A stretch of DNA of 64,000 nucleotides. Source: an uncultured Actinomycetota bacterium (GTDB lineage Bacteria; Actinomycetota; Actinomycetes; Actinomycetales; CAWJMD01). A program made the translations under genes and the position numbers. Location of the stretch: NCBI GenBank assembly GCA_963700925.1, contig OY969553.1, positions 3,417,631 to 3,481,630 on the forward strand, given 5' to 3'. Below the pieces are notes generated by a model. That model ran no database searches, had not been told where the DNA came from, and saw only the letters and a program-made list of their open reading frames with translations. This document shows, in pieces, positions 35,974 through 44,681 of this stretch. Numbering within the stretch: the stretch's first letter is position 1; every line of letters begins with the position of its first letter.

Positions 35974-36375
35974 GTGACGGACACCTGGACGGACGCCGAC
36001 CGCGAGCGCCTGCGTGGGCGCCTGGTCGGGCTCGCCGCGCGACTCCCCGGCGTGGTGGTCGAGGACTCGTTCGGGCACACGGGGTTCATGCTGAAGCGCA
36101 AGCGGCTCGCGTGGCTGCTCGTCGACCACCACGGCGACGGCAGGCTCGCCCTGTGCGTTAAGGCGCCGCGCGGAGAGCTGGACGCGCTGATGGCGGCCGA
36201 TCCTCGTCGGTACTTCCGCCCGGCGTACGTCACCGGGTGGGTCGGTGTCGAGCTGTACGCCGTCCCGCCCGACTGGGACGAGATCGGCGAGCTGTTGGAG
36301 CAGGCGTGGCGGATGCTTTCGGGCAAGCGCGCGATCGCGGCCTACGACGCCGAGCACGCGGGTGAGTCAGGCTGA
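35974..36375 (+). CDS. MmcQ/YjbR family protein
   Basis: Track ORF of 133 aa: ...VVVEDSFGHTGFMLKRKRLAWLLVDHHGDGRLALCVKAP... Confidence 0.7.
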   Translation: MTDTWTDADRERLRGRLVGLAARLPGVVVEDSFGHTGFMLKRKRLAWLLVDHHGDGRLALCVKAPRGELDALMAADPRRYFRPAYVTGWVGVELYAVPPDWDEIGELLEQAWRMLSGKRAIAAYDAEHAGESG

Positions 36376-37506
36376 GGGCACGCTGACGAGCCGTGCCGCG
36401 TCGCTGGGGACGATCCCCGCGTCGTAGCCGCCCGTGACGAGCACGGCATCCTCACCCACAGTCGTTGCGGTGACGAACGACCGGCGCGGCACCGGGTCAC
36501 CGGCCACGACCGAGATCTCACCCGTCTCTGGGGCGTACACGTTCAGGCGAGTTCCTCCCGCAATCGCGACTCGGCCGTCGGGTAGCGACACCACGGCGCC
36601 GTCGAGCTTGTACTGCCCCTCGCTGAGGTCGGGGCCGGCGATCGCCGTGCCAGCTGCGACATCGACGATCTCGGTGCTCCGCAACAGGTCTCGTCCCTCG
36701 TCCGAGCTCGAGCCACCGACCACCAGCACGCGGCCATCGGGCAGGGCAGCCGCGCCGTGCTTCACGCGCGGCACCGCGAGGTCAGGACCTTCGCGCCAGG
36801 CGCCGTTCTCCAGAACCTCGATGGAAGCGATGGCCGTCTCTCCGTCCGAGCCACCGACCAGCACGACCTTGTCACCGACTGCGACTGCGGCGTGGCCGGC
36901 GCGGGCGCGAGGCAGGTCGGGGCCGCGAGTGACCGCGCCGGTCGCTGGGTCGAAGAACTCTGTGCTGCTCAGGGCTGCGCCGTGGGCGTCGTACCCGCCG
37001 GCGAGCAGAACGCGGCCGTCCGGCAGGGGAGTGGCTGTGTGGACAGCCCGTGGCGTCGTCATGTCACCGACGGACGAAAAGCGTTCTGCCGCAGGCTCGA
37101 ACGCCTCCATGCCCGATGCCGGGTCTCGCCCCTCACCCGGGTAACCGCCGGTGAGCAGCACGCGACCGTCCCGCAAGAGGGTGGCCGTCCCGCTGGCGCG
37201 TGGCTCCAAGGCCTCGGGACCGGCTGCGAGCCGTCCCGACGCAGGGTCAAAGAGCTCGCTCACCCGTCCGGAGTCGAAGTCTTCGCAGAACCGCGCCGTG
37301 CAGCCGCCGGTGATCAGCACGCGGCCGTCGTGCAGCGTCGTCGCCCGGTGCACGGCACGAGGCTGCGCCATTGCCAGGACGCCGTCTGTCGTCGCCGGCT
37401 GGGAAGCGCCGGGTGCGTCCGCCGGCTCGGACGGCGATGCAGTGCAGGAAGCGAGCACGAGGGCCGCGGCGACTGCGATGACGACATCGGTGCGACGACG
37501 TGCCAC
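36367..37506 (-). CDS. Kelch-repeat (beta-propeller) lipoprotein
   Basis: Track ORF of 379 aa. The lipobox is LVLASCTAS. It has six or more repeats of the ..DGRVLLTGGY.. / ..PR..H.A..L.DGRVLV.GG.. type. Confidence 0.75.
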   Translation of the reverse strand: MARRRTDVVIAVAAALVLASCTASPSEPADAPGASQPATTDGVLAMAQPRAVHRATTLHDGRVLITGGCTARFCEDFDSGRVSELFDPASGRLAAGPEALEPRASGTATLLRDGRVLLTGGYPGEGRDPASGMEAFEPAAERFSSVGDMTTPRAVHTATPLPDGRVLLAGGYDAHGAALSSTEFFDPATGAVTRGPDLPRARAGHAAVAVGDKVVLVGGSDGETAIASIEVLENGAWREGPDLAVPRVKHGAAALPDGRVLVVGGSSSDEGRDLLRSTEIVDVAAGTAIAGPDLSEGQYKLDGAVVSLPDGRVAIAGGTRLNVYAPETGEISVVAGDPVPRRSFVTATTVGEDAVLVTGGYDAGIVPSDAARLVSVPSA

Positions 37507-37606: not shown

Positions 37607-37897
37607 ATGAGCAAGGTGGACGCGCAACGCGCGATGCGAGAGGCCAAGTACGCCCGGATCCAGGAGAACTCCGTGGCCCGACGGCAGGAGGCGGCGTCAG
37701 CAGGCCCGCGAACCGCTGTCGTCACGGCACCCCTGGTGACGTCGCCGCCCCGGCAGGAGCCGACCGAGGCACCGGTCGCCCCAGAGGAGACGCCTTTCGA
37801 GGAGCGGTCGCAGGACGTGTGCGGTCACCGGTCGATGAACGGCCGCACGTGCACCCGCGAGTCAGGCCACCCGCAGAAGAACCACCGCTACTCCTGA
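37607..37897 (+). CDS. hypothetical protein with C-terminal CGH..GR.C.R..GH..K.HRY motif
   Basis: Track ORF of 96 aa. It has non-biased N-terminal composition (MSKVDAQRAMREAKYARIQENS) and a Cys/His-rich C-terminus. Confidence 0.45.
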   Translation: MSKVDAQRAMREAKYARIQENSVARRQEAASAGPRTAVVTAPLVTSPPRQEPTEAPVAPEETPFEERSQDVCGHRSMNGRTCTRESGHPQKNHRYS

Positions 37898-37922: not shown

Positions 37923-38459
37923 TCAGGCCTGAAAGTCCGAGGGCCGAAGCCGGTGCACGGCAAGGTTCAGGCCGTAGTACTTCTCGGTCTCGCCGACCCA
38001 CTCCATCCCCAAGCGGTCGATCACCCCGCGTGCTGCGTGGTTGCCGGGCCGTGAGACGGCGAACACCTCGGGCAGGTGCTGCTCGAACGCCCACGTGAGC
38101 AGGGTGCGCGCTGCCTCGGTGGCGTAGCCGCGTCTCTGGTGCGCGGGGCTGACCTGCCAGGCGATCTCGACGTCCTCCCCACCGGGCGGCAGCGGTAGCA
38201 GGGCGGCCCCGCCGACGACGACCTGCTCGTCCGTGTTCTCGACGGCCCAGCGGCCCAGCGGCTCCACCATGCGCACGCTCTCCGCGGCCCACGCGTCCAG
38301 AACGCAGGCCATGGCGGCGACGTCCGGCACCTGCCGCATCGCCGGTGACAGCCAGCGCGCGACTTCGTCCCTGCCGTAGATCTCGAAGGCCGCAGGGGCG
38401 TCGTCGCCAGTCCACGGTCGAAGCGTGAGCCGGGGTGATGTCAGCACGTTGTCGGACAT
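37923..38459 (-). CDS. GNAT family N-acetyltransferase (RimJ/RimL-like)
   Basis: Track ORF 37923..38714 trimmed to ATG 38459. The sequence reads MSDNVLTSPRLTLRPWTGDDAPAAFEIY...IAWQVSPAHQRRGYATEAARTLLTWAF. Confidence 0.85.
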   Translation of the reverse strand: MSDNVLTSPRLTLRPWTGDDAPAAFEIYGRDEVARWLSPAMRQVPDVAAMACVLDAWAAESVRMVEPLGRWAVENTDEQVVVGGAALLPLPPGGEDVEIAWQVSPAHQRRGYATEAARTLLTWAFEQHLPEVFAVSRPGNHAARGVIDRLGMEWVGETEKYYGLNLAVHRLRPSDFQA

Positions 38460-38623
38460 GCTGCAGAACTTACCTCCGGTGCGTGGCTGCGCGACCGGTG
38501 ACTTCCGACCCTTCCGCCGCCAGACACCCGCCTGGCCCCATCGAGATCGCCCAAACGGCACCGTCGAGGCGAGCGATGATGCGATGCGTGAGATCTCGCG
38601 AGGGACTCGAACCAAACGCGGGA

Positions 38624-38683
38624 GGATGTCCGGAGCGGCCTGACGGCTCCGACGTCTCCGGTGAGCGGCACCCGCGGGGTGCC
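38624..38683 (+). promoter_or_regulatory. candidate ECF-type promoter plus leader hairpin (copy 1)
   Basis: GGATGTCCGGA-N12-CTCCGACGTCTC-CGGTGAGC-GGCACC-cgcgg-GGTGCC. It ends 21 nt before the yciI-like start, and its counterpart is at 40414..40474. Confidence 0.5.
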
Positions 38684-38703
38684 CCGTCCGAGGGGAGAAG
38701 ACA

Positions 38704-39120
38704 GTGAAGTACATGATCCTGACCTACGCGTCCCAGCAGGACTACGACGCCATGGCTGGCAAGCCGGGGGAGGACGAGGCCTGGTCCGGCGATGACTTCG
38801 CCGCCATGGGCGCCTTCATGGAGGCGTTCAACGCGGAGCTGGTCGAGTCCGGCGAGCTGGTGGAGACCCGCGGGCTCAGTGCGCCCGTCCACACCCGGCG
38901 GCTGCACCTGCAGGCGGGGGTGCCCGTCGTGACGGATGGCCCGTACCCCGAGGCTCAGGAGGTGCTGGCCGGCTACTGGATCGTCGAGTGCGAGAGCTTC
39001 GACCGGGCCACAGAGATCGCCGTCAGGATGTCCGACTGTCCGGGACCGGACTACGTCCGCGAGAGGGCCATTGCCGACATCCGTCCGATCGACGAGTACC
39101 GGCCCGACCGGGAGACCTGA
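38704..39120 (+). CDS. YciI/DGPF-domain family protein
   Basis: Track ORF of 138 aa: MKYMILTYASQQDYDAM...VVTDGPYPEAQEVLAGYWIVECESFDRATEIA. Confidence 0.85.
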   Translation: MKYMILTYASQQDYDAMAGKPGEDEAWSGDDFAAMGAFMEAFNAELVESGELVETRGLSAPVHTRRLHLQAGVPVVTDGPYPEAQEVLAGYWIVECESFDRATEIAVRMSDCPGPDYVRERAIADIRPIDEYRPDRET

Positions 39121-39126
39121 CCCGCC

Positions 39127-40386
39127 GTGCCGGGTGCCGACGTGCCTGGCACCACGGTCGAGGGCCTGCTGCGCCCCCTGGTGCCGCAGGTCCTCGGCGC
39201 CGTGGTGCGCCGCTACGGCAACTTCGACCATGCAGAGGACGCCGTCCAGGAAGCGCTTTTCGCAGCGACCAAGCAGTGGCCGGTCGAGGGCGTCCCCGAC
39301 AACCCGCGCGGCTGGCTGATCCGGGTCGCCTCGCGGCGGCTGACCGACCTTCTCCGCAGCGAGCAGGCTCGGCGCCGCCGGGAGGACACCGCGGCGGTTC
39401 TCTCCGTCGCCGAATACCGGCCCGAGACAACCGATGTCGGACGGACGCACGCCTCCGACGACAGCCTCATCCTCCTGTTCATGTGCTGCCATGGCGCGCT
39501 GACCCCGGCGTCGCAGATCGCGTTGACCCTGCGCGCGGTCGGCGGCCTGACCACCACAGAGATCGCCCGCGCCTTCCTCGTACCCGAGGCGACCATGACC
39601 CGGCGGATCACCCGAGCCAAGCAGGGCATCGTGGCCAGCGGAGTGCCCTTCCGGATGCCCTCGGGTCCCGAGCGCACCGAACGCCTCGCCGCCGTCCTGC
39701 ACGTGCTGTACCTGATCTTCAACGAGGGCTACGCCGCCACGTCCGGCGCGAGCCTGCACCGCGGAGACGTGTCAGCCGAGGCGATCCGGCTGGTTCGCAT
39801 GGTCCACCGCCTGCTGCCCGGCGACGCTGAGGTTGCTGGGTTGCTGGCCCTGATGCTGCTGACGGACGCCCGGCGGCCGGCGCGCATGGGCCCGGACGGC
39901 GTCGTGGTGCCGATGGCCGACCAGGACCGCAGTCTCTGGGACGGTGACGCCATCGCCGAGGGCACCGCCCTGATCACTGAGACCCTGCCGAAGGGACCGG
40001 TCGGGCCCTACCAGCTGCAGGCCGCGATCAGTGCGCTCCACGACGAGGCGCCGGGCGCCGACTCCACGGACTGGCCGCAGATCGTCGCCCTGTACGAGCT
40101 GCTGCTGCGGCTGGACGACAGTCCCGTCGTGCGGCTCAACCACGCCGTGGCGGTGGCCATGGTGCAGGGCCCGGACGCGGGGCTCGCGCTGATCGAGGAC
40201 TTCAGGGCCGATCAGCGCATCGCCGGCGACCACCGGCTCCACGCCGTCCGAGCCCATCTGCTGGAGCAGTCCGGCGACCTCGCCGCCGCCCGCGCGACCT
40301 ACCTGGAGGCGGCGGGCCGCGCCACGAGCCTTCCCCAGCAGCGCTACCTGAACGCCCAGGCCGCGCGCCTCGCCGAACGCGCCTGA
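39127..40386 (+). CDS. ECF sigma factor with long C-terminal TPR-like extension (ECF42-type)
   Basis: Track ORF of 419 aa. Sigma-2 is AEDAVQEALFAATKQWP..GVPDNPRGWLIRVASRRLTDLLR. Sigma-4 is LTTTEIARAFLVPEATMTRRITRAKQ. There is then a ~230-aa helical extension. It lies immediately downstream of a DGPF/YciI gene. Confidence 0.85.
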   Translation: MPGADVPGTTVEGLLRPLVPQVLGAVVRRYGNFDHAEDAVQEALFAATKQWPVEGVPDNPRGWLIRVASRRLTDLLRSEQARRRREDTAAVLSVAEYRPETTDVGRTHASDDSLILLFMCCHGALTPASQIALTLRAVGGLTTTEIARAFLVPEATMTRRITRAKQGIVASGVPFRMPSGPERTERLAAVLHVLYLIFNEGYAATSGASLHRGDVSAEAIRLVRMVHRLLPGDAEVAGLLALMLLTDARRPARMGPDGVVVPMADQDRSLWDGDAIAEGTALITETLPKGPVGPYQLQAAISALHDEAPGADSTDWPQIVALYELLLRLDDSPVVRLNHAVAVAMVQGPDAGLALIEDFRADQRIAGDHRLHAVRAHLLEQSGDLAAARATYLEAAGRATSLPQQRYLNAQAARLAERA

Positions 40387-40413
40387 GCCCACCCGCGCGG
40401 ACCCGAAGAGCAC

Positions 40414-40474
40414 GGATGTCCGGACCAGCCCGGTCGCTCCGACGTCTCTGGTGAACGGCACCGAAACCGGTGCC
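40414..40474 (+). promoter_or_regulatory. candidate ECF-type promoter plus leader hairpin (copy 2)
   Basis: GGATGTCCGGA-N12-CTCCGACGTCTC-TGGTGAAC-GGCACC-gaaacc-GGTGCC. It ends 21 nt before the DUF998 start. Confidence 0.5.
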
Positions 40475-40494
40475 ACCCCACGAGAGGACAGGCC

Positions 40495-41175
40495 ATGTCA
40501 CACCACACCGTCACCCCACGAGCAGGGCAGTCGTCCCCGACGCCCAGCGACGACCCACAGACCACCCGCCTGCTCACCTGCGGCATCGTCGCGGGCCCGC
40601 TGCTTCTGGTCGTCTGGGCGCTGCAGGCCTTCAGCCGCAACGGTTTCGACCCGACCCGCCACCCGATGAGCCTGCTCAGCCTCGGCAACCTCGGCTGGAT
40701 CCAGATCGCCAACTTCGTCGTGACCGGTGCGCTGGTGATGGCCCTCGCGGTCGGAGTCAGGCGCGTCCTGCACCCCGGTCGGGGCGGCACGTGGGGGCCG
40801 AGGTTGGTCGGGGCGATGGGGGCAGGGCTGGTCACGGCCGGAGTGTTCGTCACAGACGCGGGGGCCGGCTTCCCCGCCGGCGCCCCGGCAGGGGCGCCGG
40901 AGATGACCTGGCACGGCGCCCTGCACGAGGTGGGCTACGTCGTCGTCATGCTGTCGTGGACGGCCTCGTGCCTCGTGCTCCGCCGCCGGTTCCGCGCCGC
41001 CGCTGAACCAGGGCTGGCCCGGCTCTGCATGGCGAGCGTCATCGCAGTCGTCGCCATCAGCGCCGTCCCTCACCTCGACAGCTTCACGATCCGCATCGCG
41101 GTGGCGACGGCAGTCCAGTTCGCGTTCCTGGGCGTCGTGGCAGCGCGACTGCGCCGTGGCGTGCCGCAGCACTGA
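40495..41175 (+). CDS. DUF998-like integral membrane protein
   Basis: Track ORF of 226 aa with about 6 TM segments: ...HPMSLLSLGNLGWIQIANFVVTGAL... The family name is from memory. Confidence 0.65.
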   Translation: MSHHTVTPRAGQSSPTPSDDPQTTRLLTCGIVAGPLLLVVWALQAFSRNGFDPTRHPMSLLSLGNLGWIQIANFVVTGALVMALAVGVRRVLHPGRGGTWGPRLVGAMGAGLVTAGVFVTDAGAGFPAGAPAGAPEMTWHGALHEVGYVVVMLSWTASCLVLRRRFRAAAEPGLARLCMASVIAVVAISAVPHLDSFTIRIAVATAVQFAFLGVVAARLRRGVPQH

Positions 41176-41303
41176 CACCAAGCCATGGCCGGTGGATCGG
41201 GCGAACCGCCATGCCGGTGCGCCGCTATCGTCGGTGGGCGCTGCCAGACTCCAAGGGACGGCCCGACGGAGGGGCAGCGAGTTCGACCGGGAGGGCGTGG
41301 CGC

Positions 41304-44300
41304 GTGCTGGAGGTGCACCGGTCGGAGTCCGGGCTCTCGCTCGTCTCAGCCCTGGCCGACCTGCTGGCGGTCCCGCCGGCCGACCCCTTCACGCCGGACG
41401 TCGTGGCGGTACCCGCACAGGGCATCGAGAGGTGGCTGGCGCAGCGGCTGTCCCACCGGCTCGGTGTCGGCTCGGACCTCGGTGTTGACTCGGTCCCAGG
41501 TGCCGAGTCGGAGGCGGACGGCGTGTGCGCGCACGTGCTGTTCCCCCGTCCGCAGGCCCTGCTCGACGACGCCGTGTCGGCGGTGAGCGACGAGCACGCG
41601 GCGTCCGTCCAGGCCTGGGAGCCGGCGCGCACCGTCTGGGTCCTGGTCGACCTGCTCGAGCAGGTCGCTTCGGGCGCGCTCGCGGCGTCCGACACCTCGT
41701 TCGACCTGCTGCGGCACCACCTGAAACAGGGTCATGCGGTCCCCACCGGCCGTCGCTACTCGCTCGCCCGGAGAGTGGCCGGCCTCCTCCACGCCTACGC
41801 TGCGTCCCGGCCACAGGTGCTGCGCGACTGGCAGGCCGGTGACGTCAGCGGCGTCCCGGGCGACCTGCGCTGGCAGCCCGAGCTGTGGCGACTGCTGAGG
41901 GCCGAGCTCGGTCCCAGCCCGGCCGAGCTGCTCGACGACGCCTGCACCTTGCTGCGGACCCGTCCCGACGCCGTCAGGCTCCCTGAGCGCTTCAGCCTCT
42001 ACGGTCCGAGCCGCATCGACGCCGCGCGGCTCGACGTGCTCGTCGCTCTCGCCCAGCACCGCAACGTGCACCTGTGGCTGAACCACGCGAGTCCTGCTCT
42101 GTGGCAACAGGTTTCCGCCCTGGCGCCCCGTTCAGACCTTCGGCGGCGCCCCGCTGAGCGTGTCCCGGGAAACGCTCTGCTCGCGTCCCTGAGCCGTGAC
42201 GTCCAGGAGCTGCAGGAGCGCCTGGCCGCTGTCGCTCCCGACCTGACGTCGACCCACCACCCGCCGCCGCCCGTCCCGAGCACGAGCCTCCTCGGGCGGC
42301 TGCTGGTCGACCTGCGTGACGCGTCCCCACCCGGTGCGCCCCTGGTCATGGACACGGGTGACCGCTCCGTGCAGGTCCACGCCTGCCACGGCCGGGCCCG
42401 CCAGGTCGAGGTGCTGCGCGACGTCGTACTGGGCCTGCTCGCCGACGACCCCACGCTCGAACCGCGCGACGTGCTCGTGATGTGCCCCGACGTCGAGACG
42501 TTCGCGCCCCTCGTGACGGCCGCCTTCGGCACCGAGCCCGCTGCGCGGCTGCGCGTGCGGCTCGCTGACCGGTCCCCACGCCAGGTCAACCCCGTTCTCG
42601 CAGTCGTCGGCACCCTTCTCGAGCTGGTGGCCGGACGGGTGACCGCCAGCGCCCTCCTCGCCCTCGCCGGTGCACCCCCGGTGCGCCGGCGGTTCCGGCT
42701 CGACGAGGAGGACCTGGAGCAGCTGCGGGCGTGGACCGTCGACTCCGGTGCGCACTGGGGCCTCGACGGGCCGCACCGCAACGCCTGGAAGATGGGCGCG
42801 ATCGGCTCGGGCACGTGGCGCGTCGCGATGGACCGCGTTCTCAGCGGCGTGGCCCTCGGTGGTTCCGACCAGCCCGTCGGAGGCGTCCTGCCCCTGGATG
42901 GGATCGACTCCGGCGCAGTCGATCTCGCCGGGAGGTTCGCCGAGCTGGTCGACCGCGTCCACGCCGGCGTCGAGGCACTCGGCCGCGACCAGGGGCTGGC
43001 CGACTGGCTCGCCGCGGTCGAGCACGTCACCCTCTCGCTCGTCGACGTGGGCTTCGACGACGCCTGGCAGCTGGTGCAGCTGCGCAGCGAGCTCGGTGAG
43101 ATCCGTGACGCCGCAGAGGCTTCCGCGTCGCCCCTCTCCCTTGCCGACGTTCGGACCATGCTCGACCTACAGCTGCAGGGGCGCCCGACGCGCAGCAGCT
43201 TCAGGTCGGGAGGGCTCACCGTCTGCACGCTCGTCCCCATGCGCTCCGTACCTCACCGGGTCGTCTGCCTGCTGGGCATGGACGACCTCAGCTTCCCGCG
43301 CCGCAGCCGGCCCGACGGCGACGACCTGCTGGCCCGGGAGCCGCACCTCGGCGAGCGTGACCCTCGTAGCGAGGACCGGCAGCTCTTCCTCGACGCCATC
43401 ACGGCAGTGACCGAGAGGCTGGTCGTCGTGTACCAGGGCGCGCACGAGCGCACCGGAGCGCCGCTCCCTCCCGCTGTTCCGGTCGGTGAGCTCCTCGATG
43501 CGATCGACGCCTGCGCCACCACGGCCGACGGCCGTCCGGCGCGCCAGCAGGTCGTGGTGCGTCACCCGCTGCAGCCCTTCGACCCCCGCAACTTCACGCC
43601 CGGCGAGCTCGGACGACCCTCGCCGCTGGCCTTCGACCGTGCGGCCCTGGACGGGGCGCGGTCGAGCCGTGGGCCGCGTGAGTCCCGTCCGCCATTCATC
43701 GCCGGAACGCTCCCGGCGATCCCGCTCGAGGACGTCGTCGAGCTATCGCTCCTCCGATCCTTCCTGAAGAACCCGGCCAACGGTTTCCTGAGGCAACGGC
43801 TGGAGGTTGCCGACCCCTGGGAGGTCGAGCAGCTGGCCGACTCACTGCCGGTCGAGCTCGACGGCCTGGGCAAGTGGAAGATCGGAGAGAGCGTCCTCGC
43901 CGCCCGAATGCGTGGACTCGACGCCGCCACCGTCAGGGCGGCCGAGCTCGCCCGTGGAGCCCTGCCGCCGGATCCGCTCGGCGACCCCGTGCTTCAGGAG
44001 GTGGGGCCGGTCGCCGAGGACCTGCTGCACCGCGCCCTACGGTGGCGAGAGGACGGCTCGGGCAACCCCCTGCCCGTCGAGGCGGTGGACGTCGACGTTC
44101 GCCTCGCCGGCGACCGTCACGTGGTCGGGTCGATCAGCGGTCTGCGAGCCCAGACGCTCCTGCGCGTCTCGTACTCGCGGCTGGCCGCCAACCACCGACT
44201 CGAGGCGTGGATCGACCTGGTCGTGCTGGCGGCGCAGAAGCCCGAGACGGCTTGGGAGGCAGCGGTAGTCGGTCGTGGTACCGGGAAGGCGATCGCGGTG

Positions 44301-44681
44301 TCGCGGCTGCGTGGGCCGACGGCCGAGCGGGCCAACGAGATCCTGCTGGACATGGTGCGCATCCGTGACCTCGGCCTACGGGTGCCGCTGCCGCTGCCCG
44401 TCAAGACGACCGAGGCCTACGCCTTCCAGCGGTGGAAGCAGCGCCCTCCGGCGAGCGCGCTCTACAAGGCAGGCAGCGAGTGGGCGAGCACGTTCGGCTT
44501 TGACAAGGAGGATCGTGCCGCCGAGCACGTGAGGGTGTGGGGTGGCGTGCTGCCACTCGCCGAGCTCGTGAAATGGCAAGCGCCCGAACGCATTCCCGCC
44601 TACGCCGACGAGGGTGACGACTTCGGCCGCCTCGCGTGCCGGCTGTGGTGGGACCTGTTCGAGCACGAGGAGCTGCTGTGA
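41304..44681 (+). CDS. recC: exodeoxyribonuclease V gamma subunit
   Basis: Track ORF 41211..44681, with the start preferred at GTG 41304 (VLEVHRSESGLSLVSALADLL). It is ~1125 aa and is followed by recB with a GTGA overlap. Confidence 0.9.
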   Translation: MLEVHRSESGLSLVSALADLLAVPPADPFTPDVVAVPAQGIERWLAQRLSHRLGVGSDLGVDSVPGAESEADGVCAHVLFPRPQALLDDAVSAVSDEHAASVQAWEPARTVWVLVDLLEQVASGALAASDTSFDLLRHHLKQGHAVPTGRRYSLARRVAGLLHAYAASRPQVLRDWQAGDVSGVPGDLRWQPELWRLLRAELGPSPAELLDDACTLLRTRPDAVRLPERFSLYGPSRIDAARLDVLVALAQHRNVHLWLNHASPALWQQVSALAPRSDLRRRPAERVPGNALLASLSRDVQELQERLAAVAPDLTSTHHPPPPVPSTSLLGRLLVDLRDASPPGAPLVMDTGDRSVQVHACHGRARQVEVLRDVVLGLLADDPTLEPRDVLVMCPDVETFAPLVTAAFGTEPAARLRVRLADRSPRQVNPVLAVVGTLLELVAGRVTASALLALAGAPPVRRRFRLDEEDLEQLRAWTVDSGAHWGLDGPHRNAWKMGAIGSGTWRVAMDRVLSGVALGGSDQPVGGVLPLDGIDSGAVDLAGRFAELVDRVHAGVEALGRDQGLADWLAAVEHVTLSLVDVGFDDAWQLVQLRSELGEIRDAAEASASPLSLADVRTMLDLQLQGRPTRSSFRSGGLTVCTLVPMRSVPHRVVCLLGMDDLSFPRRSRPDGDDLLAREPHLGERDPRSEDRQLFLDAITAVTERLVVVYQGAHERTGAPLPPAVPVGELLDAIDACATTADGRPARQQVVVRHPLQPFDPRNFTPGELGRPSPLAFDRAALDGARSSRGPRESRPPFIAGTLPAIPLEDVVELSLLRSFLKNPANGFLRQRLEVADPWEVEQLADSLPVELDGLGKWKIGESVLAARMRGLDAATVRAAELARGALPPDPLGDPVLQEVGPVAEDLLHRALRWREDGSGNPLPVEAVDVDVRLAGDRHVVGSISGLRAQTLLRVSYSRLAANHRLEAWIDLVVLAAQKPETAWEAAVVGRGTGKAIAVSRLRGPTAERANEILLDMVRIRDLGLRVPLPLPVKTTEAYAFQRWKQRPPASALYKAGSEWASTFGFDKEDRAAEHVRVWGGVLPLAELVKWQAPERIPAYADEGDDFGRLACRLWWDLFEHEELL

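Follow-up and report, generated by a model that had tools for sequence, protein, structure and literature searches.

Sigma factors of the extracytoplasmic function (ECF) group ECF42 are described as having the sigma2 and sigma4 regions and an extension of ~200 aa that contains tetratricopeptide repeats (TPR), as lacking an anti-sigma factor, and as being encoded immediately downstream of a YCII-type gene. The group has reportedly been studied in Streptomyces venezuelae by Liu, Pinto and Mascher in 2018; the promoter logo of that work and of Wu et al. 2019 is reportedly TGTCGA / CGA/TC. Sinorhizobium meliloti also carries a YCII-like gene before its ECF42 sigma gene (SMc01151-rpoE10), and RpoE10 induces SMb20475 and SMc01149 (PMC6180224). 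The two mapped promoters, ACGATGTCGGATCGGTTGCGGCTGGTGCGTCATCGTATCA and CCCTGTCGGCAGGCGGCATCCTCCTTCGTCCTTGGAATg, have the form TGTCGG-N17-CGTC with the transcription start site (TSS) at the 9th nt after CGTC (PMC6180224). The promoter class, its YCII linkage and the existence of multiple local targets are already known. Here we analyze a 64,000-nt stretch of DNA from an uncultured Actinomycetota bacterium (contig OY969553.1 of assembly GCA_963700925.1; hereafter the window, whose positions serve as coordinates, all locus features being on the + strand unless stated). In it a YCII/DGPF-like gene (yciI), an ECF42-type sigma factor gene and a gene for a DUF998 membrane protein follow one another, and one sequence module stands before both the first and the third. 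We put at about 0.8 the probability that these modules are two ECF42-class promoters, one for yciI-sigma and one for the DUF998 gene, each with a 5' leader stem-loop that is most likely protective. Recognition by this sigma factor, the TSS, autoregulation and the function of the hairpin are what we infer by analogy with described systems.

ECF42 sigma factors are widely distributed; the literature covered here names no physiological signal for them, and no function is known for the proteins encoded by the mapped target genes of S. meliloti. The present locus would add DUF998 as a conserved target, whose promoter is kept even when the gene is unlinked from the sigma gene. Neither DUF998 as an ECF42 target nor a conserved leader hairpin was found mentioned in the ECF42 literature searched, Liu et al. 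2018 and Wu et al. 2019 being outside its scope, and the principal ECF42 papers may hold a prior mention of one or the other.

A duplicated module before yciI and DUF998

The first-pass annotation of the window had described a duplicated layout of boxes, spacer and hairpin before the yciI-like and DUF998 genes, and this was borne out by reading of the sequence, by a repeat finder and by pairwise alignment. The two modules (38624-38703 and 40414-40494) have exact boxes in register, and their ends abut the start codons GTG 38704 and ATG 40495, respectively. The repeat finder reports 38624-38672 and 40414-40462 as a direct repeat of 49 nt with 84% identity. In the pairwise alignment the layout is GGATGTCCGGA, a divergent spacer of 12 nt, CTCCGACGTCTC(C/T)GGTGA(G/A)CGGCACC, a loop of 5/6 nt, and GGTGCC. 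The hairpin exists in both copies, but the 6-bp stem and 5/6-nt loop assigned at first are too short and too wide: the stems extend to 7 bp and the loops are 3 and 4 nt. Likewise, the distance from the 3' arm of the hairpin to the start codon is 20 nt in both copies (38684-38703 and 40475-40494), one less than the 21 nt originally counted.

When the 49-nt pattern was searched with up to 3 mismatches, only these two sites were found in 64 kb, for which dinucleotide shuffles expect 0.00. A covariance model of the module, described below, also reports only two sites in the window at E<=1, with 44.5 bits (E 5e-12) and 26.9 bits (E 2.6e-6). The bare core TGTCSR-N17-CGAC, by itself, is not enriched in the window (2 found vs 2.25 expected); only the whole module is significant, not the bare core motif. 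We also considered an interspersed repeat (similar to repetitive extragenic palindromes or miniature inverted-repeat transposable elements, REP/MITE-like) and rejected it, as there are only two copies in 64 kb, the similarity is confined to the boxes, and the spacer and loop are divergent. One motif-like site, TGTCGGACGGACGCACGCCTCCGACGAC (TGTCGG-N18-CGAC), lies within the sigma open reading frame (ORF) at 39435-39462, with an 18-nt spacer and no hairpin; it was dropped as a promoter candidate, the covariance model not reporting it at E<=1, and is probably a chance match.

Promoter boxes in related loci and in mapped ECF42 promoters

For comparison, one genome per species was scanned with the sigma protein, and 80 related loci at 58-71% identity were taken from at least 600 matching stretches. 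They span Actinomycetota, Acidobacteriota, Chloroflexota, Gemmatimonadota, Dormibacterota and others; labels of the form L001, L002 are used where individual compared loci must be told apart. Most of the 80 loci have the motif (GGA)TGTCGAGAA-N11-GCTCCGAC at ~50 nt before a gene whose product begins MKY(M/I/L)L, the yciI homologue. Among 47 aligned modules from 42 loci, TGTC and the C-G-C of CGAC are invariant and the A is nearly so; the family consensus is (GGA)TGTC(G/C)(A/G) at -35 and CTCCGAC at -10, i.e., TGTCSR-N17-CGAC. The covariance model gives 56 matches at E<1e-3 across the window and the 80 loci. The window boxes, TGTCCGGA and CTCCGAC with TGTCCG-N17-CGAC in both copies, are the same family elements. 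The proposal of ECF42-type promoters made in the first-pass annotation is supported by these data, the boxes matching both the modules before yciI in most of the 80 loci and the mapped RpoE10 promoters (PMC6180224).

The -35 box exists in more than one form. TGTCGAGAA is the majority variant, while TGTCCGGA, with CCGG, characterizes the window clade and is common to the closest relatives (L001 from Streptosporangium, L002 from Amycolatopsis, L003, L028 from Micromonospora, and L040). A third variant, TGTCAAGAC or TGTCAACGA, occurs in some actinomycete loci (L067:2055-2125, L072:2042-2113, L074:2043-2113 and L063:2051-2123). CGAC is constant, whereas the -35 box seems to differ from clade to clade. 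By its sequence, the window locus is best described as a variant -35 box within a known promoter class, and the basic finding is otherwise what a specialist would expect beside an ECF42 gene; the clade-specific variant TGTCCGGA could be used for studying region-4 specificity.

The window promoters and those of S. meliloti have in common a TGTC(G/C)G core at -35 and, at a distance of 17 nt, a CG(A/T)C core at -10. In both organisms a YCII-type gene precedes a sigma gene whose product has a long C-terminal extension, further promoter copies stand before neighboring genes of unknown function, and the leader is short; a hairpin likewise follows in SMb20475, right after the mapped TSS. The promoters differ in the -35 box, which is TGTCCGGA in the window, TGTCGG(A/C) in S. 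meliloti and TGTCGAGAA in most relatives, and in the -10 core, CGAC in the window and CGTC in S. meliloti. ECF41 promoters are also comparable: that of S. meliloti RpoE9 (CCATGTCACACC...CTCGTC, before the carboxymuconolactone decarboxylase gene and rpoE9) likewise has a TGTC-type -35 box, with a CGTC-type -10 box (PMC6180224). ECF41 and the window system both have a fused C-terminal regulatory domain and a target gene directly upstream of the sigma gene, and, like ECF41, the window system has no anti-sigma factor among its Pfam-annotated genes. In contrast, ECF41 has TGTCACA at -35, a SnoaL-like extension and a partner other than YCII, whereas the window sigma factor has a DUF6596, putatively TPR-like, extension and a YCII partner.

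These comparisons bear on the register of the promoter. The first-pass annotation had read TCCGGA-N18-CGTCTC as the boxes and had placed the TSS ~7 nt after CGTCTC. Its -35 hexamer does lie inside the true box, but its -10 call is 3 nt too far downstream. That the original register (-35 TCCGGA, 18-nt spacer, -10 CGTCTC, TSS ~7 nt downstream) is the functional one appears unlikely to us. The mapped RpoE10 and RpoE9 promoters of S. meliloti do have CGTC as their -10 core (PMC6180224), and the GTC after CGAC is conserved in most actinomycete modules; across phyla, however, it is CGAC, 17 nt from TGTCSR, that is (nearly) invariant. The following GTC is conserved mainly in Actinomycetota loci; those of Acidobacteriota, Gemmatimonadota and Vicinamibacterales have T(A/C)(A/C) or C(T/A)(A/C) in its place. 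Moreover, the mapped S. meliloti CGTC sits at the CGAC position, N17 after TGTCGG, and a TSS 7 nt after CGTCTC would land at the stem base. By analogy with S. meliloti the TSS is expected 3-4 nt farther upstream than first proposed, at the positions in Table 1.

Conservation and covariation of the leader hairpin

A shared leader hairpin had been noted in the two window copies, and in relatives it is conserved with compensatory changes. Most modules have a stem-loop at nearly the same place, after a conserved TGA(G/A)A, with arm sequences that differ by clade (GGCACC/GGTGCC, GCCGCCC/GGGCGGC, GGGGGTC/GGCCTCC, CGCAC/GTGCG, GCGCGCC/GGCGCGC and CCGGCCG/CGGCCGG). We picked 49 modules by promoter motif and downstream ORF only and searched them for an unbroken stem of 6 bp or more whose first base lies 10-17 nt after CGAC. 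Such a stem occurs in 45% of the modules vs 16% of random background windows from these loci (p ~1e-6), and the modal stem offset in this search is 13 nt after CGAC. The distance from CGAC to the stem has a mean of 12.3 nt (sd 1.1 nt), and that from the stem to the start codon a mean of 21.0 nt (sd 2.7 nt).

The covariance model was seeded with 10 modules of identical geometry from Streptomyces and Kribbella. In the resulting alignment 95.5% of the cells pair, compared with 67.7% in column shuffles and 31-56% with slid partners; changes on both sides are seen in 7/7 hairpin pairs, and compensatory cells number 60 vs 16 in shuffles. The covariation score is 0.362 vs 0.091, with 0/500 shuffles as high, and RNAalifold run on the model alignment recovers the same helix. 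Two sets of hairpins, those before DUF998 orthologues and that in S. meliloti, are out-of-sample and independent of the model alignment. The leader of SMb20475 (L081:1240-1262, on pSymB) reads A-UCAGGUCG-GGCUCU-CGAUCUGA; its 8-bp stem, in which one pair is G-U, starts at position +2 relative to the mapped TSS, and no mention of this hairpin was found in the text of PMC6180224 covered here. The hairpin is also found after modules driving major facilitator superfamily (MFS) transporter genes, and so by sequence it goes with the promoter class and not with one gene. In most cases among the ~90 loci compared, an ECF42 promoter is accompanied by a covarying stem-loop that lies at the expected 5' end of the transcript or a few nt from it. 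Promoter plus hairpin may serve as a sharper search model for ECF42 regulons and as a testable handle on transcript control.

Because G-U cells outnumber A-C cells 25 to 4 in the alignment (15 to 3 in the non-seed rows), the covariation points to sense-strand RNA. A first strand test, which scored lengthening of the stem by G-U or A-C, had favored A-C (21 modules vs 11); we attribute this excess to an artefact, because a conserved A precedes the stem and a C-rich flank follows it. A count of internal mismatches by strand gave numbers too small to use.

The strand asymmetry is one reason why we consider it quite unlikely that the inverted repeat is a DNA operator for a dimeric repressor or activator, lying just downstream of both start sites and adding a second layer of control. 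Such an operator would fit the perfect palindrome, its overlap with predicted positions +5 to +22, which is a classic roadblock position, and the retention of GGCACC/GGTGCC in both window promoters and in L003, L023 (minus strand), L083 and L086. A double-stranded DNA site, however, would lack an asymmetry of 25 G-U vs 4 A-C. Between clades the arm sequences are unrelated (GCCGCCC, GGGGGTC, CGCAC, GCGCGCC, CCGGCCG and others) while the pairing is kept. Loop length ranges from 3 to 9 nt, and the two copies of one genome differ by 1 nt, as would be natural for an RNA stem but not for a dimer site; no regulator gene is conserved beside the modules.

Several other analyses concern the same segment. 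Whole-module alignment by MAFFT followed by RNAalifold showed no hairpin, because variable loop lengths put the arms out of register. A search with Rfam (release 15) gave no match at E<=10 in 38300-40800, and in 20 related loci nothing reached the gathering score except two tRNAs; compared with Rfam families, the element is a single hairpin of 5-9 bp, too small to find without the adjoining promoter boxes. A small upstream ORF beginning at the conserved (A/G)TGA, which in L009 would end in ATGA at the main start, was rejected because the loops vary by non-multiples of three and, with frames judged by eye, the frame is not kept in L012 or in the window.

Proposed role of the promoters and leaders

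Each module would comprise an ECF42-class promoter and the initial ~22 nt of the transcript. The polymerase holoenzyme containing the sigma factor of 39127-40386 is predicted to recognize (GGA)TGTCCGGA at -35 and CTCCGAC at -10, with 17 nt from TGTCCG to CGAC, and to start transcription ~8-10 nt after CGAC. Promoter 1 would drive the yciI-sigma operon, giving positive autoregulation, and promoter 2 would drive the DUF998 membrane-protein gene, placing DUF998 in the regulon of this sigma factor. The predicted leaders of ~42 nt would consist of 4-6 unpaired nt ((G)UGAGC or (G)UGAAC), a GC-rich stem-loop of 7 bp and 20 nt that include the Shine-Dalgarno box. The stem-loop appears to be a general feature of ECF42-dependent transcripts, where it would most likely protect a short leader from 5'-end-dependent decay, hairpin and ribosome together leaving almost no naked RNA.

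A protective 5'-terminal stem-loop is favored because the position of the hairpin is tied to the promoter, hence to the 5' end, because the stem begins at +2 in the one mapped case (SMb20475), and because the 20-nt gap to the start codon is close to the upstream reach of a bound ribosome. A ribosome bound there would leave little accessible RNA. Stabilizing stem-loops at the 5' end of bacterial mRNAs are known from the 5' untranslated region of Escherichia coli ompA and from the Bacillus subtilis aprE and ermC leaders. Like these, the ECF42 leaders would have a stable stem a few nt from the 5' end and a short leader followed by the ribosome-binding site, and the structure is conserved while the sequence is not. 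The ompA, aprE and ermC stem-loops are gene-specific, whereas the ECF42 stem-loop accompanies a promoter class in at least 4-5 phyla.

A number of observations weigh against this interpretation. In S. meliloti the yciI-like gene that precedes rpoE10 was not induced by over-expression of RpoE10 (PMC6180224), and autoregulation is therefore not universal in the ECF42 group. For the present organism, sigma dependence, TSS and autoregulation are proposed by analogy, and stabilization is one of several hairpin functions compatible with the data. Since the helix is part of the model that fitted the covariation alignment, the counts drawn from this alignment lean towards the helix. No convincing hairpin is seen in L002, L009 (at 636), L014, L031 and L042. 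The fold energy of copy 1 is unremarkable (z -0.49) and that of copy 2 moderate (z -2.35); in this GC-rich DNA the mean z of leader folding vs dinucleotide shuffles is only -1.0, and it is the comparison of genomes, and not folding energy, that supports the hairpin. In addition, the stem keeps GGCACC/GGTGCC as a sequence, both in the two promoters and in different genomes of the clade. A purely structural role would not require clade-wide conservation of the stem sequence, which hints at more than structure.

Some of the same features would also be expected if the hairpin acted in ECF42 transcription or in regulon-wide post-transcriptional control instead of being a passive stabilizer. The nascent stem could, near the RNA exit channel, aid promoter escape or sigma release, or the hairpin could be bound by a regulon protein, e.g., the YCII/DGPF protein or the C-terminal domain of the sigma factor. 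The hairpin follows the promoter class whatever the gene (yciI, DUF998, MFS transporters, and SMb20475, which is glyoxalase-like according to PMC6180224), it lies at a nearly constant distance from the -10 box (sd 1.1 nt), its stem keeps the same sequence within the clade, and a conserved TGA(G/A)A precedes the stem. However, a fixed distance from the promoter is equally expected for a 5'-terminal stabilizer, and several bona fide modules lack a hairpin, which argues that it is not obligatory for promoter function. We regard an active hairpin as a proposal only, possible but doubtful.

The broader notion that the leader stem-loop is an integral, regulon-wide RNA component of ECF42 signaling from Actinomycetota to Acidobacteriota, Chloroflexota and Alphaproteobacteria is equally tentative, and we would not expect it to hold. 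If it did, the nascent hairpin may be needed for the extended sigma factor to clear the promoter, or may be the site where a regulon protein such as YCII/DGPF feeds back on all ECF42 transcripts, and the signal and output logic of ECF42, left undefined in the reviews covered, would include an RNA element.

DUF998 and other candidate targets

The 2.5 kb flanking the sigma gene contain no DUF998 gene in any of the 80 related loci (0/80), and the DUF998 contexts described here were found by starting from DUF998 homologues and their contigs. The module stands immediately before DUF998 orthologues of 63-73% identity, which occur in three different genomic contexts. L083-85 (an Actinophytocola metagenome-assembled genome, DUF998 73% identical) and L088 keep the order yciI-sigma-DUF998, while in L086 and L087 the neighbors of the DUF998 gene are unrelated (DUF3048, GAP1-N2) and the 2.5-kb flanks hold no sigma gene. 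The covariance model places a module immediately before DUF998 in all of L083-L088 (E 8e-6 to 1.3e-4), and before yciI as well in L083-85. Absence of the motif upstream of orthologous genes had been named in the first-pass annotation as an observation that would count against its prediction; the outcome favors the prediction, as the orthologues carry the module with or without an adjacent sigma gene. From these data we infer that DUF998 is a member of the ECF42 regulon of this sigma factor.

The same orthologues make it highly improbable that copy 2 is an intrinsic terminator or attenuator of the yciI-sigma operon and owes its similarity to copy 1 to a recent local duplication, so that there would not be two promoters. 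Copy 2 begins only 27 nt past the sigma stop codon, and a terminator role has been proposed in Actinobacteria for GC-rich hairpins that lack a U-tract. But the complete module, -35 and -10 boxes included, is retained by DUF998 genes that lie far from any sigma gene, and the pattern of exact boxes with diverged spacer and loop is kept in genomes with ~70% identical proteins, which argues for an old duplication under selection. The same hairpin is found in copy 1, upstream of which there is no co-directional gene, the GNAT acetyltransferase gene there being divergent. A terminator scan of 38300-41400 found nothing, as did a sigma-70 promoter scan, and neither hairpin is followed by a T-run (the tails are CCGTCC and ACCCCA).

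In other relatives extra modules stand before MFS transporter genes divergent from yciI in L015, L019, L020, L023 and L074, and others before an alpha/beta hydrolase gene (L010), genes for RibD_C proteins (L036 and L047) and a gene for a DUF4287/AHSA1 protein (L056). With such additional modules in relatives, the typical ECF42 regulon would be small, local and variable in its members. In Kribbella, Streptomyces lactacystinicus and Nonomuraea loci the second module faces an MFS_1 gene and is back-to-back with the yciI promoter. The MFS-facing sites are L015:1964-2037, L019:1982-2053, L020:1969-2042, L023:1926-1996 and L074:1939-1997, all on the minus strand, and 4/5 have their own hairpin; weaker minus-strand matches are found in L066, L072 and L073 before ORFs homologous to the L074 transporter. 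The recurrence of MFS-facing modules suggests that efflux or transport is a recurrent ECF42 output.

Exceptions to the usual arrangement were also observed. L014:2017-2049 and L031:2023-2060 have very short leaders, 22-25 nt to the start, and no hairpin, and in L056 (2449-2475, + strand) the promoter is directly before the sigma gene with no yciI gene between. Because of these loci the hairpin and the yciI-first operon appear frequent but not obligatory.

Genes of the locus and neighboring sequences

The coordinates of genes and predicted elements are collected in Table 1.

Table 1. Genes and predicted promoter and leader elements of the yciI-sigma-DUF998 locus (window positions).
Feature	Position	Strand	Basis
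YCII/DGPF-like gene, 138 aa, starts VKYMIL, TDGPYPE motif	38704..39120	+	PF03795, E 2.8e-10
ECF sigma factor gene, C-terminal extension ~250 aa (ECF42 architecture)	39127..40386	+	Sigma70_r2, Sigma70_r4_2, DUF6596
DUF998 protein gene, 226 aa	40495..41175	+	PF06197, E 6.4e-34
-35 box of promoter 1, GGATGTCCGGA (core TGTCCGGA, 38627-38634)	38624..38634	+	Identical in both copies
-10 box of promoter 1, CTCCGAC (CGAC 38650-38653), 17 nt after TGTCCG	38647..38653	+	Alignment with relatives
Predicted TSS, yciI-sigma operon	38661..38663	+	Analogy with S. meliloti TSS; conserved TGA here in related modules
Leader hairpin 1, GGCACCC-GCG-GGGTGCC, 7 bp, loop 3	38667..38683	+	Position and pairing conserved in relatives
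Shine-Dalgarno region GAGGGGAG before GTG 38704	38690..38697	+	Read from sequence; purine-rich boxes likewise placed in relatives
-35 box of promoter 2, GGATGTCCGGA (core 40417-40424)	40414..40424	+	Repeat, pattern search
-10 box of promoter 2, CTCCGAC (CGAC 40440-40443)	40437..40443	+	Sequence, relatives
Predicted TSS, DUF998 gene	40451..40453	+	Same analogy as copy 1
Leader hairpin 2, GGCACCG-AAAC-CGGTGCC, 7 bp, loop 4	40457..40474	+	Fold z -2.35; before DUF998 orthologues in L083-L088
Shine-Dalgarno region GAGAGGA before ATG 40495	40482..40488	+	Read from sequence

An ECF42-type sigma factor linked to a DGPF/YciI gene had been recognized in the first-pass annotation, and domain matches to YCII (PF03795), Sigma70_r2, Sigma70_r4_2 and DUF6596 together with the adjacency of the two genes agree with it. 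The core domains of the sigma factor lie at residues 16-80 (PF04542) and 117-166 (PF08281), and DUF6596 (PF20239) at residues 186-285 (E 2.5e-36). Against TIGR02937 (sigma70-ECF) the protein scores 41.7 bits, slightly below the cut-off of 42.9; its closest solved structures are SigK and SigJ, of which only the core is matched. As to the C-terminal TPR-like extension that had been predicted, the extension itself is there, at ~250 aa, but TPR models match it at sub-threshold scores only (TPR_8, E 0.07; TPR_14, E 0.17). The yciI stop codon and the sigma start are separated by 6 nt, and the same yciI-sigma arrangement is found in relatives. No Pfam-annotated gene of the locus looks like an anti-sigma factor, a small unannotated ORF at 37607-37897 being left aside. 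By sequence the locus fits the ECF42 description, apart from the TPR character of the extension, seen below threshold only.

The N-terminus of the YCII-like protein agrees with MKYM(I/L)L in its homologues. The public call of this gene (ENA ERZ25039530, contig_14452) starts at ATG 38752 and gives 122 aa. This call is probably 16 codons too short, because the homologues all begin MKYM(I/L)L and a promoter-to-start spacing of ~50 nt fits GTG 38704 (138 aa).

The upstream neighbor of the locus is the divergent GNAT gene mentioned above and the downstream neighbor a RecC-like gene (41211-44681, 1156 aa, with RecC_N, RecC_4th and RecC_C), which starts 36 nt past the DUF998 stop. Neither a module nor a terminator is present in the gap between DUF998 and the RecC-like gene, and read-through from the DUF998 promoter into the latter is therefore conceivable. 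Farther upstream, the small ORF at 37607-37897 (96 aa, without a Pfam match) separates the GNAT gene from a minus-strand ORF of 379 aa (36367-37506), whose product has a lipoprotein-like N-terminus and repeated DGRVL motifs and looks Kelch/beta-propeller-like by eye.

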